Assembly: GCA_963827655.1 (NCBI GenBank)
Contig: CAWHCF010000041.1
Location: 167,918-231,917 of the forward strand
Origin: an uncultured Acidobacteriota bacterium
Lineage (GTDB): Bacteria; Acidobacteriota; UBA6911
DNA length: 64,000 nt
Direction: 5' to 3'
The notes under the pieces were generated by a model. That model saw only the letters and a program-made list of their open reading frames with translations. It was not told the origin of the DNA and ran no database searches. Within the stretch, counting starts at the first letter, position 1, and the number at the start of each line of letters is the position of its first letter. The position numbers and the translations under genes are program-made. This document shows positions 55,728 through 64,000 of the stretch, one piece after another.

Positions 55728-55808
55728 GTGAGCGACATCTTTATCAGCTACGCCAGGTCGGATCGTGGTCACGTCAGGGATCTTCATCAGCTACCGGCGC
55801 CAGGATAG
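55728..55808 (+). pseudogene. Remnant 5' end of a second TIR-domain gene
   Basis: GTG-SDIFISYARSDRGHVRDL, a typical TIR_2 start, out of frame with and overlapping the next TIR gene. Confidence 0.55.
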
Positions 55809-56604
55809 TGATGCTTATGCAGGACGGTTGTATGACCGGCTGAGCACTCACTTCGGCAAAGCACGGATATTCATGGATATTGACATGAATCTCGGCATCG
55901 ACTTTGTTGACGAAATTGAAGAAAGAGTGGCCTCTTGCGAGGTTTTGATCGCGGTGATCGGTCGCAACTGGCTGGAAGTCAAAGATGACGGGGGTCGCCG
56001 AAGACTGGATAATCCAAAGGACTGGGTCCGTCTCGAGATCGCGGCTGCCCTCGAACGGAACATTCCAGTCATACCGGCGCTGGTTGGCGATGCCAAAATG
56101 CCCGGCTCTTCAGATTTGCCAAGCGTGCTCTCAAATTTGACGCGGAGACAAGCGATTGAAATCAGTCACAGTCGATTCCATCCCGACGTGGACCGTTTGA
56201 TCCGTGGTCTGGAAAGAATCGTATCCTCCACCGGCACCACAATGGAGGTCCCCGAAGGCGTCTACGTCGACCCTGAAACGAAGTTGATGTGGACCATTGA
56301 GGACAACGGAGAAGACATCGACTGGTTCGAAGCAAACGAATACGCCAAGCAATTGAGGCTGGGTGGGTATTCCGATTGGCGGTTACCGACGATCGAAGAG
56401 CTGGAGCGACTCAATGATCCAAAGAGTGGAAACAGATTTGAGATCAGACAGCCATTCCAGCTAACTTCCGAAAAGATCTGGAGCTCGACGAGAGAACGCT
56501 CGCGGGCCTCTTACTTTATCTTCGGCCCCTACATCCTGGGAGATCCTGTCCCCATGGACCGCGCCGACGCACGTGCCTTGTGTGTGCGTCGTTCCGGAGA
56601 ATGA
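55765..56604 (+). CDS. TIR_2 domain plus Lcl/DUF1566 domain protein
   Basis: IFISYRRQDS--YAGRLYDRL, DWVRLEIAAAL (catalytic Glu); D--TKLMW, LGGYSDWRLPTIEEL, WSST, ALCVR. Confidence 0.85.
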   Translation: MVTSGIFISYRRQDSDAYAGRLYDRLSTHFGKARIFMDIDMNLGIDFVDEIEERVASCEVLIAVIGRNWLEVKDDGGRRRLDNPKDWVRLEIAAALERNIPVIPALVGDAKMPGSSDLPSVLSNLTRRQAIEISHSRFHPDVDRLIRGLERIVSSTGTTMEVPEGVYVDPETKLMWTIEDNGEDIDWFEANEYAKQLRLGGYSDWRLPTIEELERLNDPKSGNRFEIRQPFQLTSEKIWSSTRERSRASYFIFGPYILGDPVPMDRADARALCVRRSGE

Positions 56605-57173: not shown

Positions 57174-57250
57174 TGGTGCGCCTGGGGTGACTCGAACACC
57201 CGGCCCACGGTTTAGGAAACCGTTGCTCTATCCAACTGAGCTACAGGCGC
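57174..57250 (-). tRNA. tRNA-Arg (anticodon CCT)
   Basis: GCGCCTGTAGCTCAGTTGGATAGAGCAACGGTTTCCTAAACCGTGGGCCGGGTGTTCGAGTCACCCCAGGCGCACCA; cloverleaf with encoded CCA. Confidence 0.97.
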
Positions 57251-57259
57251 ACACTTTAT

Positions 57260-57322
57260 AATCAATCACTTAGAGGAATCGACAATTTGCAGAAATTGCC
57301 GATTGTGCATGAAATTGTGCAT
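57260..57322. promoter_or_regulatory. att-like accessory sites: IHF consensus and tandem arm-type repeats
   Basis: AATCAATCACTTA (57260-57272) fits WATCAANNNNTTR; ATTGTGCAT repeated at 57302-57310 and 57314-57322. Confidence 0.55.
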
Positions 57323-58347
57323 ACGGCATCGAATCCAGCTTCCGGGCAGCATCGAAAAGATCACCCTCGCTGACGATGTTGTACCGCTCAAAAACCGAGC
57401 GCGTTTTGTGACCAGTCATCTTCATCGCGACGGCCTCCGGGATCCCGGCGCGGACCAGATTCCGGACCGCAGTTCGGCGGAAGTCGTGTGGAATTTTCGC
57501 CGGAACACCGGCAGCCACACAGGCGGTCTTCCAGGAGCGGCGGAATTCCTTGATGGGCTTTCCGCGCCGATGAAACACCCAGGGGCAAATGATACCCCGC
57601 TTTCTCAGTAGCTCCAGCTTGATTCGTTGTTCCTCCAGGACTGCGCGCAGCTCCCGGGTAAATGGGAAATACCCTCGCCTCATCATTCTTGGTCGTACCG
57701 GGTTCCAGGCGCACAATCCCAGCAGCAAAATCAACCTGTGACCACTCGAGGAAGCGTACCTCGCTTCGGATCCGCCAGCCCGTGATGTAGGCGAAAGTTA
57801 CCATCGGCTGAACGTCCGGCGAGAGGCGCTTCCGGACTGCCTCGAACTGCTCCAGGTCGAAGAACCCTTTCCTGACGTTATTCTCTTTTAGCATTGGAAC
57901 GTGAGGCTTCGTCATGATCTTGCCGGCCTGGGCCGCCAAAGAGAAGGCCCGCTTGATCGCCGTAAGTTCCCGGTTGATCGTGCCGTTTGCAGCGCCTTCC
58001 TCCTGGCGCCGGACGACATATCTGCGGATATCCGCCGTTGTAATTGCCGAAGCGCGCGCTTCTCCGAAAAACGGCAGGATGTGTTTTTCAAATCTCGTCT
58101 CGACATCCTTGACCGATCGCCGGCCGTTAATCCTGTAGTCATTGATTTCATCCGCGGCCATCTCCGAGAACCTGATCTGGCCCATCCGGGGCGTAACTGG
58201 GATTCCCTTTGCAATGTCAGATTCCTTCAAGCTCAGGAGGCGCTTTGCCTCGGCCTGGCTTACACTGCCGGAGCTTTCCCGCATGTGGATCCCGTCCCGG
58301 TAATACGAAATCCACCAGGTGTTCCCTCTCTTATATGTGCTTCCCAT
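57270..58347 (-). CDS. Tyrosine recombinase/integrase, frameshift near 57665
   Basis: N-terminal arm-binding WWISYY, TINREL, TGWR--SE, TKN, PHDFRRTAVRNL, GHKTRSVFERY. Confidence 0.92.
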
Positions 58348-58414
58348 CCTAGTCGCCTTTTTCTCTCGAGCGCGTGTTGATACCCAGTATCCATTGCTAC
58401 CGAGTATCCGTCCG

Positions 58415-58600
58415 CTAACTCGCTTCCTTTGGGTGCTTGACCTTCGGAAGCACGATCAGCTTCCGCTTTTCGGCTTTCTCTACGTAATCTTCCAGAAGCT
58501 TCTGGGCAATCTGCTTCATCGTCTTGCCTTCCAGAACGCAGACTATCCTCAACCTCTGGTGTAACTCCGCCGGAATGTCCATCACAAATCGCTTTTTCAT
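58415..58600 (-). CDS. Small ribbon-helix-helix (CopG/ParG-like) DNA-binding protein
   Basis: KRFVMDIPAELHQRLRIVCVLEGKTMKQIAQKLLEDYV pattern; directly upstream of the integrase. Confidence 0.65.
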   Translation of the reverse strand: MKKRFVMDIPAELHQRLRIVCVLEGKTMKQIAQKLLEDYVEKAEKRKLIVLPKVKHPKEAS

Positions 58601-59326
58601 GATGTAGTAATGTACATGCGTCCATCGTATTATTCAAGCTCTTTTCTCACGTAATCGCCTTGATTCCTCATCCTGGAAATGGCCGGCGAGACCGATCTTG
58701 CCGCGGTCGCTGCGTGGGAGCCGGCGACAGTCCTCTTCTGCGGGCTGATGACGAAGGACTTCCGTGGTTCGGAGGAGGATAAGAACACCAAGTCCATCAT
58801 GGCCGACCCAGGCAAGTACTTTACGGGTCAGCACCGGCAGCTCACGCGCGAGAAACTCAGCAAGATCCGGTGTCCGGTCATCGTGACCCACGGCGACGTT
58901 TCCGCCCTCAAGAAAATCAACTTCGAGTTCTTCTTCCCTGAGCTCATGAACGCCGGCAAGAAGGTAACGATCAGCATAAGCCGTGGCGTGCGAGATTTCT
59001 ACGAGATTTCGGCAGCATGTCTCCAGTGTGTGGGAAGACCTGGTTCGCCAGAGCATACCGTGTGTGCCGTACTTTGGCAGAGAGTGGAAGGCAGCCACTT
59101 CATGGTGGGGCACTCGATTGGACCGAAGAGCGTTGGAACTAGACTTGGTGGCGGAGAGCACGGATGGAAATCTCTCCTAAGAATGAAGGACATCTTGCTC
59201 GTTGCACGTCCACTTCTGGGCGAAGATCTGGTCGAGGAGATGCGCGGGATGCTTGATTCCTCTTTTATCAAGCTTCTCGGCGGCTAACCTCGATGGCAAG
59301 CGCCAGCTACGCGCGCTGCCTCTACG

Positions 59327-59587
59327 ATGAAGCTGGAAACCATTTCAGCCGCGCTGCAGAAGTTGGCTGTCCCTACCAGAAATTCCGAACGTGCTGTTAT
59401 GATTGACCTTCGCTTATTAATTCGCCAGGGACAGGCCGAATTGTTCAGACACCAGGAAGTAGTGAAACTTATCGGTTTTCGCGATGGAGATGGGGAGATC
59501 GACGACAGCTACATTCAGAAACTCAAGACTCCCTTCGAAAGCAAGGATTTCACACCTTGGAATCATTTAGCAGTAGGCAACGTGTGA
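59327..59587 (+). CDS. Hypothetical protein (possibly a fragment)
   Basis: 86-aa ORF with ATG start in an AT-richer segment; no family recognised. Confidence 0.3.
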   Translation: MKLETISAALQKLAVPTRNSERAVMIDLRLLIRQGQAELFRHQEVVKLIGFRDGDGEIDDSYIQKLKTPFESKDFTPWNHLAVGNV

Positions 59588-60029
59588 TGATCAAGAGGGA
59601 ACCTCTTGCTGGAATGGGAAGGGATCCTAGTCGCTCAGAAGAAAACGTTCAGAGTTGTTCTTTCCATAACACTGCTTACGAGGTCCGTTGCGGTTGAAAT
59701 CGATTTTGATGACTTCATCCTAATCACTTGAAAGTATTTTTCCCTAATTAGCAAAGGCAGTGTCAAAAGGTTCGGCCCGCAAGTGCCTCACCCCGTCTGG
59801 TAATCCTTCCCCTACTCCTGTCCCTGGCGAATTCCGAATTTGCTGTCATTTCCATCCACGCATCCACTACGAATTGTCGCAATCCTACATTTTCCGATTT
59901 TCAAACGCGGCAACCAAGTGAACCCGGGCTATACAAAGGCGAACGTGATAGTCCGACGCTCTGAGCCAGTGCTCAGTCCTATTTACTTGCCTGACGCTCA
60001 CCACAGTAGAGCTTCATGTCGCTATTGGC

Positions 60030-60401
60030 GTTTGATAGAGTCCGCGACACAGTGTGGCGACTTCGTCGAAGGTCGAGCGACGGTGTTGGTCTATGGTAAG
60101 GCGTTCTGGCGTTCGAGCAGAATGTCATCTCACAAATCCGGCACAGAGATCGACGACGTTTCCCGGAGTTGGTCTGGTAGAAGTCATGGAGGATGATACT
60201 TCCGGCATCGGCATCTCTCGACAGAGGGCATTCCCTGTTTGGACAGCTGACACTCTTCATTGTTCCAGGACCTTGTGGATTATGGAACTGATTGCTTGGA
60301 ATTGAGTGCTGCCGGAGGGCAACGATCTCCAGGCCGAGGTTGTAGCGCGAACGGAAGAACGCGCTGAGGCAGGTGACGAAGCTGATAAAAAATGAAATCA
60401 T
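60030..60401 (-). pseudogene. Fused transposase remnants (integrase-core IS N-terminus plus InsA-like zinc ribbon)
   Basis: FFRSRYNLGLEIVALRQ resembles an IS transposase N-terminus; CPNRECP...RRR-LCRICEMTF resembles an IS1 InsA zinc ribbon; degenerate downstream. Confidence 0.55.
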
Positions 60402-60744
60402 GAGTTCAGATTCATAGCATAGGCGTCCGTCCCGACGTCCACGTTAAAGGCTTGAATTTGCCACCTCACGGGGAGTATCGGCGACACACAAGTCGCAGAA
60501 TTGTCAATATCATGGCCAGGAAGTGTCGGGCCCAGAGGCACGGAAAGTCAACCGTTTCAACGCTGTCGCGATTTTGGCGAATGACACTCGGCTAACTCGC
60601 GCCGCCGAGATATTTCGGCAGACCATCTCGCCCAACTTATGCTATTCTCCCACCGGCACCGAAAAGCAATTTCCTATTCTTCACGACAGGCATCGACATG
60701 GCCGCGGTCGGCCCAAGGAAACGGAGTCTGCGCGCTACCGCCTG

Positions 60745-61289
60745 ACGCCCGTCCGTCTGTCGCCGTCGGCCGTTGGCGCACACCACTGGCCTCCGATGGC
60801 GTTCAACCGGCGACCGGTCTGGTCTATTATCCGGGGCAGGCAACGAGCATGGCGTTCTCGATGCAGGAGCAGTACGACTTCAAAGAAGGTCGGTGGCGCA
60901 TCGGCGCACAATTGGACCCGCCGTCACCTCCGGACCCGAAGGCTCCTCCGATGGCGGGATTCTTCGTCGCCTGGGACCCGGTGGGGCGGAGAGGCGCGAT
61001 GGCGCATTCCGTTTCAGCCGAGCGGCGGCGCGCTTTCGACCGCGGGACAGCTGATCGTCGTCGGCAACAGCGCAGGTGCGCTGCTCGCGCTCGGTCCGGC
61101 GACCGCGGGACGCTGTGGCAGCACCAGATGCTGCCTGGCGTCGCCACGCCCATCACCTACAAGTTCGATGGTCGCTAGTACATCGCAGTGATGTCAGGAT
61201 CGAACAACGGTCGTGTGTTTGCGTTCACGCTCGATGCATCAAGGAAACCAGTAACGGCGAAACGATTCTGCAGGTTGCTTCCGCCATGA
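60745..61289 (+). pseudogene. C-terminal fragment of a PQQ-dependent alcohol dehydrogenase
   Basis: PSAVGAHHWPPMAFNPATGLVY, AWDP, GGALSTAG-L, ATPITY--DG; frameshifts plus in-frame TAG at about 61176; 5' part missing. Confidence 0.7.
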
Positions 61290-63566
61290 GCCGCCCGAAT
61301 GTTTTTGTCAGCTACAGCCACAAGAACAGTCGTGCGCTCAAGAGCCTGCTCCCGTATCTGGACACGCTGAAGCGAGCCAACTTCGTGGACGTGTGGACCG
61401 ACAGACAGTTGCGCGGCGGGCAGCGCTGGCGCGAGGAAATCCGCGCGGCACTCGCCGCCGCGGGACGTTGCCGTCCTTCTCATCTCCCAGGAGTTTCTGA
61501 CGTCGACGTTCGTCTACGAAGAAGAGCTGCCGAGCATCCTGGAGCGGCAGACGAACGGCACGCTCACGGTCCTGCCGGTGTACGTCAGTCCCTCGACGGT
61601 GACGTCTGAGGAGGTTGTCTTTCTGGACGCGAGGGGACGCGAACAGCGCATCCTGCTGAGCGACACCCAGGGCTTTGGCACGCCGCAACGGACACTGAGC
61701 GAGCTCGATCTGCCGGAACGCCAGCGCGCGTTCGTGGACCTCCACGACCGGATTCGCGGCCTGGCCACCACACGACAGACACCATTGACGCCTGCGGCCG
61801 GCGTCCGCCGTGCGGCGGCGGCGCACGCGAGCACCGACCACCGCCCGCACATTCATCATTCTCCGTTCCCGCGCAATCGGAACTTCAGCGGACGTGAGGC
61901 GTACCTGCGCCAGCTGCACGAAGAGTTGACCAGCGGCAGACCAGATGCCGGAACGCAGGCGCTGACCGGGCTCGGTGGAATCGGCAAGACACAGATCGCC
62001 TTGGAGTACAGCTACCGCTACGGGGCGGAGTACGACATCTTGTGGTGGGTCCGCTCGGAGTACGTGGACACTTGCCTGGAAGACGTCCGAGGACTGGGCG
62101 CGGCATTGGGCGTCGAGGGCAGGAGCAATGCGAAACAGGCGGCGGCCGCGGGCCCGTCAAGCAGCTGAACAGCCTCGACGACTCGGCCTCTTGCCTTTGA
62201 CAACACCGAACATCCGGACGTCATTCGAGAGCTGCTTCCCAAATCTAGCCGCGGCCACGTCATCATCACCTCACGCTATCCCGCATGGGGCGCGGTGGCC
62301 CGCGTCCTCCGAATGGGCGTGTGGCAGCCGAAGGAGGCGGCCGCCTACCTGGAACGCCGCACTGGCCTCGCCATCTCAAGAGTGGCGGTCGACACGGCGG
62401 TCGCCGTCGGGCACCTGCCACTCGCGCTCGCTCAAGTCGCTGCATACGTCGAGGAAACCGGGGCCGGGTTCGAACGCTACCTCGATCTGCTCCAGAAGCC
62501 ACCCCGCAGAAACACTCGGGTGGCAGGTCAATGCATCGGAAGCGAAGAAGTCGGTTGCGACGGTGTGGGACATTGCTCTGGAACGCGTCGGGGCGTCGGA
62601 GCCGGCGGGCTGTTGACCTGCTGAACCTGTTTGCGTTCCTCCCGTCGGATGGGATCTTGCGCTCGCTGCTCGTGCAGCAAGCGGATCGGCTGCCTTCACC
62701 GCTGCGGGGCACGGTCCGCAATCAGCTGGCGCTCGACGCCGCCATCGCTGCCCTGCGGCGTTACTCGCTGGTCGACACGACGCCGGACGGGTTCATCGTG
62801 CATCGGCTTGTCCAAGTCGGTGGTTCAGGCACGTCTGGACGGCACGCGCCGCGCGGTGTTCTACGACGCCGCCACCGATTTGATGGGAAAGGATCCTGAG
62901 CTCGGCGTGCCAGCTTCTGCATCGACCTCCACGCCATCGCAGGCGCCCCCCGTACAACACAAGAAACGCCGAGCCGCCGAAGATGCACCTCTGGAGCCTT
63001 CGCGGTTGTGGACGGATCGCACGATACCGTACGTGCTTTCCTCGGGTCTCACCGAGTTCGACATCACCCTCGTGCGCCAGGCAATCGCGCCATTTCGAAG
63101 AGAAGACCGTCCTGCGTTTCACGCCGCTCGACAAGCCGGATGTGGAGGAAGGCGCCAATGACGTGGCGATCGTCAAAGGCCACGGCGACTTGTCAGCCGT
63201 TGGCATGCGGGGCGGACCGCAACGGCTGACGATCGGCAGTGCCAACCTGGGGAACGTCATCCATTCGTTCGGTCATACCGTCGGACTTGGGCACGAACAA
63301 CCGCCGGGCCGATCGCGACCGGTACGTGACGATCGTCTGGGAAAACATCGACCCCGGATTCCGGCACAACTTCATGATTCACCTGTCTGGTCACGAACTC
63401 ATACGCCCGTACGATCACGGCTCGATCATGCATGATGGACGGCACGCATTCAGCGCCAACGGACGGCCAACGATCATCCCCAAGGAAGATATCCACATCG
63501 GCCAGCGTTCGGGGACTGAGCGAGGGAGACGTGTTTCTTATCAACGCGCTCTACGGCGCGGGGTGA
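61286..63566 (+). CDS. TIR - NB-ARC (STAND) - astacin-like domain fusion protein; several indels
   Basis: VFVSYSHK...W-D--L-GG--W-EEI...LLISQEFLTS-F---EEL; RN-NFSGRE, GLGGIGKTQIALEY, FDN, IITSR, GHLPLALAQ, VHRLVQ; then LW----IPY, HSFGHTVGLGHEQ-R-DRD-YV-I-WENI, YDHGSIMH, IGQR-GLS-GD. Confidence 0.8.
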
Positions 63567-64000
63567 GCGTGGTCCTGTGGCAGAATCGTCGGACTGAATC
63601 CATAACCGTTTGATCCCTGGAAGGAAGTCATGAAGACGGACGTTCCACATGCAAGTCGCCCAGGTAGGTTATTGGGGGCTTCCGTCGTCAAGTGTTGCTG
63701 GAATGGACGTAAAACTCTATGTGGCATGAAATTACAGGCGAATTTGACTTCAGCAGTTCTAATCTGGGTTAAATTGGACATAAATGTTTTCGACACAATT
63801 AGATGGGACTAAGCCAACAACAGCAGATTGCGGAAGCACTGAGAGTTGGAATGCGGCTCCCAGGGACAAGCCAACGAACTCACGCCGATTCATGAGCGGC
63901 CTTCCACCTCAGGGATTTTGGGACTATTCCGCCCTCGTTAGAGCGTGCCCGGTTTGGACGTTGAGCAACACTGTATCAGAACTGTACCTTCAGAGCGAAT

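Follow-up and report, generated by a model that had tools for sequence, protein, structure and literature searches.

A Bacterial TIR-NB-ARC Protein with a Putatively Inactive Astacin-like Domain at the Sensor Position

The window analyzed here, the last 64 kb (64,000 nucleotides) of contig CAWHCF010000041.1 (C41) from an uncultured Acidobacteriota bacterium, carries near its end a gene whose product combines (i) an N-terminal TIR domain, (ii) an NB-ARC-type STAND ATPase, (iii) a linker, and (iv) a C-terminal domain related to the astacin (M12A) peptidases. The protein is best understood as a cytoplasmic TIR receptor resembling nucleotide-binding leucine-rich repeat (NLR) proteins, in which a catalytically dead astacin-fold peptidase serves as the ligand-binding sensor, with a probability of roughly 0.55. 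Because the zinc site is kept and the general-base Glu is lost, the astacin-like domain most likely binds, and does not cleave, a peptide or protein ligand, and a sensor role is supported by its location, since it stands where 32 of 36 relatives carry tetratricopeptide repeats (TPRs). An earlier interpretation of the window made from its letters alone, hereafter the sequence-only reading, had proposed such a receptor with a zinc-binding pseudo-protease as ligand trap or decoy, and as a whole it is partly supported.

Domain Architecture

The domains were assigned on P0001, an intact homologue of 756 residues, ~100% identical to the window protein and encoded on a 9.8-kb contig of another public assembly, and on separate pieces of the window (Table 1). 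Pfam recognizes TIR_2 in 61286-61606, a weak NB-ARC/AAA_16 match in 61371-62165, DUF7779 in 62249-62896, and Astacin in two pieces, 62884-63432 (E 3.7e-9) and 63230-63610 (E 1.4e-13). The TIR domain contains a YEEEL motif, the third Glu of which is encoded at 61524-61526; this Glu, which we take to be the catalytic residue, is retained in all three members of the fusion family that have a TIR domain, and in the sister protein P0009 the equivalent residue aligns to the 'YEL' Glu of AbTIR.

The STAND module matches NF040586, the so-called FxSxx-COOH system TPR protein, with 308 bits, the match covering only profile positions 3-414 of 830; the C-terminal TPR half of this profile is not matched and no Pfam TPR family is found on P0001. 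The Pfam NB-ARC match on P0001 stays under the cut-off (16.6 versus 23.5 bits). Besides the Walker A motif, the module comprises a Walker B motif, reading LLVFDN in P0001 and garbled to LAFDN in the window by a nearby insertion, and the motifs IITSR, GHLPLAL, and VHRLVQ. Taken together, the P-loop, the Walker B motif, the helical and winged-helix parts, and the predicted Apaf-1-like fold assign the module to the NB-ARC/AP-ATPase type of STAND proteins.

The linker is modeled with a predicted local distance difference test score (pLDDT) of ~30 (residues 536-570) and has no hydrophobic segment. The astacin-like domain that follows lacks a signal peptide, a propeptide, and any hydrophobic segment, and the last 200 residues contain no Cys. 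A phmmer search of the PDB with this domain returns 3lqb (E 2e-31), the solved astacins being 31-40% identical. The AlphaFold2 model of P0001 displays a mean pLDDT of 81.7 and a predicted TM-score (pTM) of 0.59, and its Foldseek comparison returns the plant TIR-NLR RPP1 (7dfv, E 2e-14), Apaf-1, the NRC resistosomes, and astacins. The superposition on Apaf-1 (3sfz) covers 379 aligned columns with a root-mean-square deviation of 4.9, and target-normalized TM-scores of 0.56-0.58 are obtained against ZHE1, BMP1, and astacin (3lqb, 3edh, and 1ast). The sequence-only reading had stitched one protein of about 750 residues across broken frames, with TIR, NB-ARC/STAND, linker, and full astacin parts; the intact P0001 confirms this observation, and the profile searches, the listed motifs, and the structure prediction, with RPP1, Apaf-1, and astacins as returns, bear out the individual parts.

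Active Site of the Astacin-like Domain

The Glu of the HExxH motif is the general base in zincins. At this position the astacin-like domain displays Ser, encoded by TCG, and the Met-turn ends in Asp. HMMER alignments against solved astacins, 3lqb and BMP1 among them, place HSFGH on HELNH/HELGH and SIMHD on SLMHY/SIMHY, in agreement with the exact positions given for both motifs in the sequence-only reading. Of the hallmarks of active astacins, HExxHxxGxxHE, SxMHY, and the features of a secreted zymogen are all absent, and the fold and the profile match are present.

The zinc motif reads HS[FI]GH in 4/4 members of the fusion family, which share 49-62% identity, and Ser658 is invariant, as are the three zinc ligands His657, His661, and His667, together with Glu668 and the Met-turn residue Met712; the proposal of a pseudo-protease is thereby strengthened. 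Because Ser is invariant in all four at this identity, the replacement of Glu is not private decay. Pairwise identity among the members amounts to 51-62% in the astacin domain, 44-65% in the NB-ARC module, and 15-29% in the linker, and by this comparison the astacin-like domain is under purifying selection, conserved as strongly as the ATPase. Since Ser is invariant in 4/4 members and the domain is so constrained, the change from Glu to Ser is old and maintained. On the other hand, the change from Tyr to Asp, whose conservation had been raised together with that of Glu to Ser, does not extend to the homologues: three members keep the Tyr of SIMHY, Asp occurs only in P0001 and the window, and the substitution is private to this lineage. 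The earlier spelling of the motif as GLGH is correct for the letters of the window (GLGHE, with Gly at 63289-63291), but P0001 and all relatives have Trp (GLWHE), the Gly thus being either erroneous or private.

The rarity of the substitution was evaluated in a motif survey of P0001, P0003, and the top 150 among 4049 astacin matches in a library of 1.84 billion proteins, which yielded 167 motifs. HE is found in 159/167 motifs of these nearest astacins, and HS in only three, all of them members of this fusion family.

Other astacin domains joined to foreign modules were observed, including (i) P0065 (392 residues), with EAD8 and an astacin domain displaying HDIGH and SIMHM; (ii) P0112 (571 residues), with an alpha/beta-hydrolase and HVLGH; and (iii) P0087 (817 residues), with a GDSL lipase and HEIGH. 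In addition, the genome of the window encodes a secreted-looking astacin paralogue (L001; G000:C11:22782-26165, minus strand, at about 1054-2476 of the locus) that displays HEIGHAVGLWHE (HEIGH) and SIMHY, is active-looking, and is followed by QxW-motif repeats that are ricin-B-like by eye; this paralogue is broken by a frameshift.

The Fusion Family and Its Distribution

The STAND-astacin fusion is found in four proteins: P0001 (756 residues), P0003 (735 residues), P0055 (734 residues), and P0202 (475 residues). A DNA search of 50 genomes of the same family with the gene gave no match. The scan of 185,579 species genomes (alignment A1), a list that may not include the genome of the window itself, retained 80 loci, none matching past query residue 604, and no second genome with the fusion is found among them. 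Likewise, the back-translated pattern HS[FI]GHxVGLWHE has 0 matches in the metagenome contigs, and each of the 80 loci kept from a second metagenome scan matches only one of the two parts, NLR or astacin. The best metagenome locus, L089, shows 58% identity over residues 1-550 and encodes a 1050-residue sister protein of the P0002 type.

In the window's own genome, a DNA search returned a sole other match, of 103 nucleotides, in the P-loop region of a paralogue (G000:C52:169051-169933, minus strand). This paralogue, of NB-ARC/DUF7779 type, lies in an open frame of 831 residues, and its P-loop DNA is 74% identical to window positions 61958-62060.

Sister Proteins with Other Peptidase Folds

The nine closest proteins (P0001-P0009) share the TIR-STAND part, with 51-61% identity, and differ in their C-terminal parts. 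These comprise (i) the astacin-like domain in P0001 and P0003; (ii) Peptidase_M28 in P0008; (iii) Peptidase_M6 in P0009; (iv) an unknown domain of ~450 residues in P0002 and P0006, found also in L089 (L089:2335-5487), for which an Atlas search with the P0002 domain returned unnamed clusters only; and (v) other short tails in P0004, P0005, and P0007.

The M28 domain of P0008, aligned to the Vibrio aminopeptidase (1amp), displays NLDST, GADNN, and ATTQG against HLDST, GADDD, and AAEEVG, with Asn, Asn, and Thr-Gln at the His, Asp, and Glu-Glu positions of 1amp; the replaced residues are presumably His97, Asp117, and Glu151-Glu152. The M6 domain of P0009 reads HYAAHALGLGEQY (HYAAH), versus HExxHxxGxPDxY in 35/35 M6 relatives. 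As judged from these alignments, three peptidase folds at the sensor position (M12A, M28, and M6) all lack the catalytic Glu.

A strongly hydrophobic 19-mer directly follows the STAND module in 6/7 non-astacin sisters and in 0/4 astacin members. If it forms a helix in the membrane, the C-terminal domain of the sisters would lie outside the cell, a natural place for a sensor, and the sisters would represent NLR-like proteins in which one domain faces outward.

The next-nearest relatives (29-47% identity) carry TPRs after DUF7779 in 32/36 cases and a peptidase in 0/36, in accordance with the earlier statement that such proteins normally end in TPRs or other repeat sensors. TPR families are also listed for 33/51 matches of a search with the piece 61371-62165.

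Integrity of the Reading Frame

The three-frame translation of 61286-63566 spreads successive pieces of the protein over the three forward frames, none of which is open throughout. P0001, found by searching the piece 61371-62165 among longer proteins, was compared with the window by frameshift-aware alignment, which starts with Met1 at 61286, ends with the stop codon at 63564-63566, and demands nine frame corrections, every one of them extra base(s) in the window, with 0 deletions and 0 in-frame stops. Eight are single-base insertions, near 61463, 62189, 62493, 62608, 62816, 63090, 63298, and 63512, and one is a 2-base insertion near 62151; the lengths agree, 2281 nucleotides corresponding to 756 x 3 + 3 + 10. 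The window differs from P0001 at 17 amino acids, ~9 of them away from the indels. The end of the STAND module, the linker, and the start of the astacin-like domain lie in one frame, and because this junction (62625-63158) is open in the window, there is no stop between the STAND and astacin parts; this agrees with the intact fusion in P0001 and with the earlier view of one gene, not two.

The genome assembly (8.18 Mb, 53 contigs, ~59% G+C, completeness figure of 90.34%) contains comparable breaks elsewhere. The genes rpoB (C8:77700-81924), rpoC (C8:82147-86155), and secA (C8:37089-39423) are each split over two frames (3/3 tested), and because these three carry indel breaks, the apparent pseudogenes of this assembly are untrustworthy. 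Further frame-broken genes include the integrase adjoining the gene and the secreted astacin on contig C11. The gene lies 434 nucleotides from the contig end, the contig stopping at window position 64000. Mean cover by long open reading frames is 0.693 at 92 contig ends versus 0.794 in 990 interior 7-kb windows; it falls to 0.27 at this contig end, and only 0.6% of interior windows are equally low.

Support from raw data is thin. The sole public sequencing run found (X1) contains 6% of the sampled words; its pieces on 60000-64000 give depth in 10/30 bins only, and most continue into unlike sequence. One 151-nucleotide short-read contig of X1, at depth 2, lacks the two extra bases at 62152, and another X1 contig is identical to the window over 61907-62057. 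Because an intact P0001 exists, the changes are insertions only, rpoB, rpoC, and secA are broken as well, and the gene stands at a contig end, the frame breaks are very probably technical and not biological. The sequence-only reading had described several single-base indels; eight such indels are present, together with one of two bases, and all are best regarded as insertions of the assembly. In practice, error-prone long contigs can give a live gene the look of a pseudogene.

Proposed Mechanism and Alternatives

A peptide or protein ligand would bind the cleft of the dead astacin, and its binding would relieve the autoinhibition of the NB-ARC switch. The ATPase might then oligomerize and bring the TIR domains together, which would consume NAD+ or make a signal, and the infected cell would be stopped. 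Candidate ligands include a phage protein, a peptidase-directed factor of an invader, as a decoy would detect, or an endogenous processed peptide.

Several points weigh against this receptor model. The family is tiny (four proteins), all of its members come from metagenome-type assemblies, and the assemblies of P0001 and the window may not be biologically independent. P0202 is devoid of the TIR domain and the P-loop, and the Walker B motif ends in DN and not in DD. The loss of Glu makes catalysis unlikely, which falls short of proving its absence. The genomic context is weak: the tRNA-Arg and the integrase lie 3-4 kb upstream, but Pfam recognizes no defense neighbors in the flanks, and PADLOC-DB 2.0 returned no Avs or NLR model for the five proteins scanned (5/5). 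Finally, the ligand, the oligomer, the NADase activity, and the role in phage defense are features that we infer.

A wider, tentative reading, clearly weaker than that of the single receptor, holds that one clade of FxsT-type TIR-NB-ARC proteins repeatedly recruited dead metallopeptidases (M12A, M28, and M6) as sensors, making them bacterial counterparts of integrated decoys or substrate traps. The dead peptidase would be cytoplasmic in the gene of the window and would lie beyond a membrane helix, outside the cell, in the sisters; peptides of an invader or factors targeting peptidases might be detected, leading to destruction of NAD+ by the TIR domains, sometimes across the membrane.

Two other accounts of the domain are improbable, to a similar degree. 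According to the first, the dead astacin is an intramolecular regulatory or scaffold module, such as an autoinhibitory lid on the NB-ARC or a surface for oligomerization, or else a decoy or dominant-negative module in the effector position. For inactive peptidases, passages of Kaur et al. 2020 (PMC7159879) propose that they bind peptides or act as dominant negatives, part of Kaur et al. 2021 (PMC8195603) mentions, among effectors, a STAND NTPase with inactive zincin-like metalloprotease domains, and the astacins without Glu in P0065 (HDIGH) and P0112 (HVLGH) are attached to other modules in proteins devoid of an ATPase. However, the domain stands at the place of the TPR sensors of 32/36 relatives, and the hydrophobic helix before the C-terminal domain of 6/7 sisters fits sensing better.

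According to the second, the protein recognizes a processed peptide of endogenous origin, acting in social signaling or programmed cell death in the manner of FxSxx-COOH systems, and not a direct sensor of a phage protein. The 308-bit match to the N-terminal half of NF040586 points in this direction, as do the many relatives named as FxSxx-COOH system proteins; a peptidase fold that has lost its base lends itself naturally to peptide binding, and a section of Kaur et al. 2020 (PMC7159879) ties such TIR-AP-ATPases to a zincin-like peptidase releasing a C-terminal peptide. Nevertheless, the NF040586 match is confined to the ATPase half, no FxSxx-type neighbors are recognized by Pfam in the flanking frames, which are error-ridden and end 434 nucleotides downstream, and the neighboring integrase and the mosaic G+C content fit a mobile defense gene.

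It is very unlikely that the astacin-like domain is still a protease, using another residue as base and serving as a second effector or in self-processing. In favor of this view, conservation extends to all three His ligands, to Glu668, and to the Met-turn and edge strand, and the Tyr of SIMHY is kept in 3/4 members. However, the Glu of HExxH acts as general base in zincins, Ser occupies its position in 4/4 members versus Glu in 159/167 of the nearest astacin motifs, the catalytic Glu is also gone from the M28-like and M6-like domains of the sisters, and the Met-turn Tyr is lost as well in this lineage. That the gene is a decaying pseudogene, a chance fusion eroding in this genome, is scarcely credible in spite of nine breaks in 2.3 kb, ~10x the rate in rpoB, rpoC, and secA, and of the amino-acid differences from P0001, including Trp to Gly in the zinc motif: an intact version of 756 residues exists, the breaks are insertions only with no deletion or in-frame stop and fall near the end of a contig in an assembly where indel errors are proven, and the fusion is found in four proteins with the astacin-like domain conserved like the ATPase.

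Comparison with Known Systems

In the bacterial NLR-like receptors known so far, it is mostly repeat or propeller domains that sense phage proteins. The Avs/bNACHT proteins (PMC13581612 and PMC11564622) share with the protein of the window an N-terminal effector, TIR being a known effector type, a STAND switch, and a C-terminal sensor; here, however, the sensor would be an enzyme-derived globular fold, not TPR-like or a β-propeller, and no PADLOC Avs/NLR model matches. FGE-sulfatase and WD40 sensors are named in a 2026 survey of the sensors of STAND proteins (PMC13581612), whose main text does not contain the word 'peptidase'. No description of a TIR-NB-ARC-astacin fusion was found in the literature, although one may be listed in supplementary tables of sensor clusters, for instance in PMC13581612; a literature search for DUF7779 returned 0 papers, and the pattern of dead peptidases of three families in one clade was not found in the literature either.

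The general idea has precedent, since parts of PMC7159879 and PMC8195603 report inactive peptidase domains in conflict systems. The former describes, in the passages concerned, effector positions occupied by inactive caspase and trypsin domains and, in rare cases, by metallopeptidase domains, with proposed peptide-binding, dominant-negative, or decoy roles; the latter (iSTAND2 systems) mentions inactive zincin-like metalloprotease domains joined to a STAND NTPase. Common to these accounts and to the protein of the window are dead folds as binders or decoys in NTPase-based conflict proteins, but the published cases, as far as these passages go, occupy the effector position and belong to MoxR-vWA ternary systems, whereas here an M12A astacin occupies the sensor position and the TIR-NB-ARC protein stands alone.

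The FxsT-type TIR-NB-ARC-TPR proteins (NF040586; AP-ATPases, Kaur et al. 2020) resemble the gene product in the N-terminal TIR domain of many of them and in the NB-ARC and DUF7779 parts, with 29-47% identity to the genome relatives, but here the TPR half is replaced by the astacin-like domain, and no FxSxx-type neighbors are recognized in the flanks. Compared to the M12A astacins (1ast, 3lqb ZHE1, BMP1, meprins, and the bacterial LegP-like enzymes), the domain preserves the fold, the three zinc His, the Glu after the third His, and the Met-turn, but displays Ser for the catalytic Glu and, in this lineage, Asp for Tyr, is devoid of signal peptide, propeptide, and Cys, and is predicted to be cytoplasmic and fused to an ATPase. 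The plant TIR-NLRs with integrated decoys, so-called NLR-IDs, share the TIR-NB-ARC core, RPP1 being the best structural match, and a non-repeat domain of foreign class, whereas leucine-rich repeats are absent here; the two resemble each other in logic and not by descent.

A conserved protease fold without its base, keeping its zinc site and serving as sensor, would represent another route of recognition, the substrate cleft being re-used as a trap. The dead M28 and M6 sisters, apparently outside the membrane, suggest that the principle is general in the clade, and if so, the distance between bacteria and plant NLRs, with their integrated-decoy logic, would narrow. A direct test is possible in a single chain with clear mutant controls, including the TIR Glu, the Walker A Lys, the zinc His, and Ser658.

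Genomic Surroundings

Table 1. Coordinates of the gene, its encoded domains and motifs, and neighboring features in the window.
Feature	Position	Strand	Remarks
Whole gene, TIR + NB-ARC/DUF7779 STAND + linker + astacin-like	61286..63566	+	756 aa in intact form; here 9 insertion events (10 nt)
TIR domain, aa 6-116	61301..61634	+	Pfam TIR_2: window piece E 4.6e-6; P0001 E 6e-13
STAND ATPase, NB-ARC / FxsT type, aa 195-530	61869..62882	+	NCBIfam NF040586, weak Pfam NB-ARC, Foldseek
Walker A, GLGGIGKT	61968-61991	+	Read from sequence
DUF7779, winged-helix part of STAND module, aa 437-519	62599..62849	+	Pfam
Ser/Pro/Ala-rich linker, aa 531-570	62883..63002	+	Predicted disordered, poorly conserved
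Astacin (M12A)-like domain, aa 573-753	63009..63554	+	Pfam Astacin E 2.4e-40 on P0001
Zinc motif, H-S-F-G-H-T-V-G-L-G-H-E	63262..63297	+	Ser (TCG, 63265-63267) at catalytic Glu position
Met-turn, SIMHD	63422..63436	+	Asp where astacins have zinc-binding Tyr
TIR_2 + Lcl_C gene	55732-56601	+	Just before tRNA-Arg; integrase on the opposite side of the tRNA
tRNA-Arg (CCT)	57174..57250	-	Adjoining the integrase
Tyrosine recombinase (phage integrase family)	57273..58455	-	Split in two frames: Phage_integrase on 57273-57797 and 57391-58455
Ribbon-helix-helix (ParD/CopG-like) ORF (open reading frame), 72 aa	58418-58633	-	Beside the recombinase

A Pfam scan of the flanking frames at 58637-61300 and 63560-63999 recognized nothing. 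The sequence-only reading had placed the gene in a tRNA-linked integrase island near another TIR gene; the tRNA-Arg and the integrase are indeed found, but the TIR gene lies beyond the tRNA, and the far boundary is unseen at the contig end. An island is plausible but not delimited, because no tRNA-derived (att-like) repeat was found and the contig ends at 64000. As a candidate boundary, a 16-nucleotide direct repeat (56192-56207 and 63605-63620; 15/16 identical, 7413 nucleotides apart), between whose copies lie the tRNA, the integrase, and the NLR gene, was rejected, such a pair being at chance level in 14 kb. The G+C content is 0.64-0.655 in the gene (61000-62999) versus 0.51-0.57 in the left flank (58000-59999), the contigs being at ~0.59, and this contrast fits a mosaic, acquired region. 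The PADLOC matches are at the level of the TIR domain only (ThsB-like, SAVED_TIR, and others), and the whole genome displays 31 TIR_2 matches.

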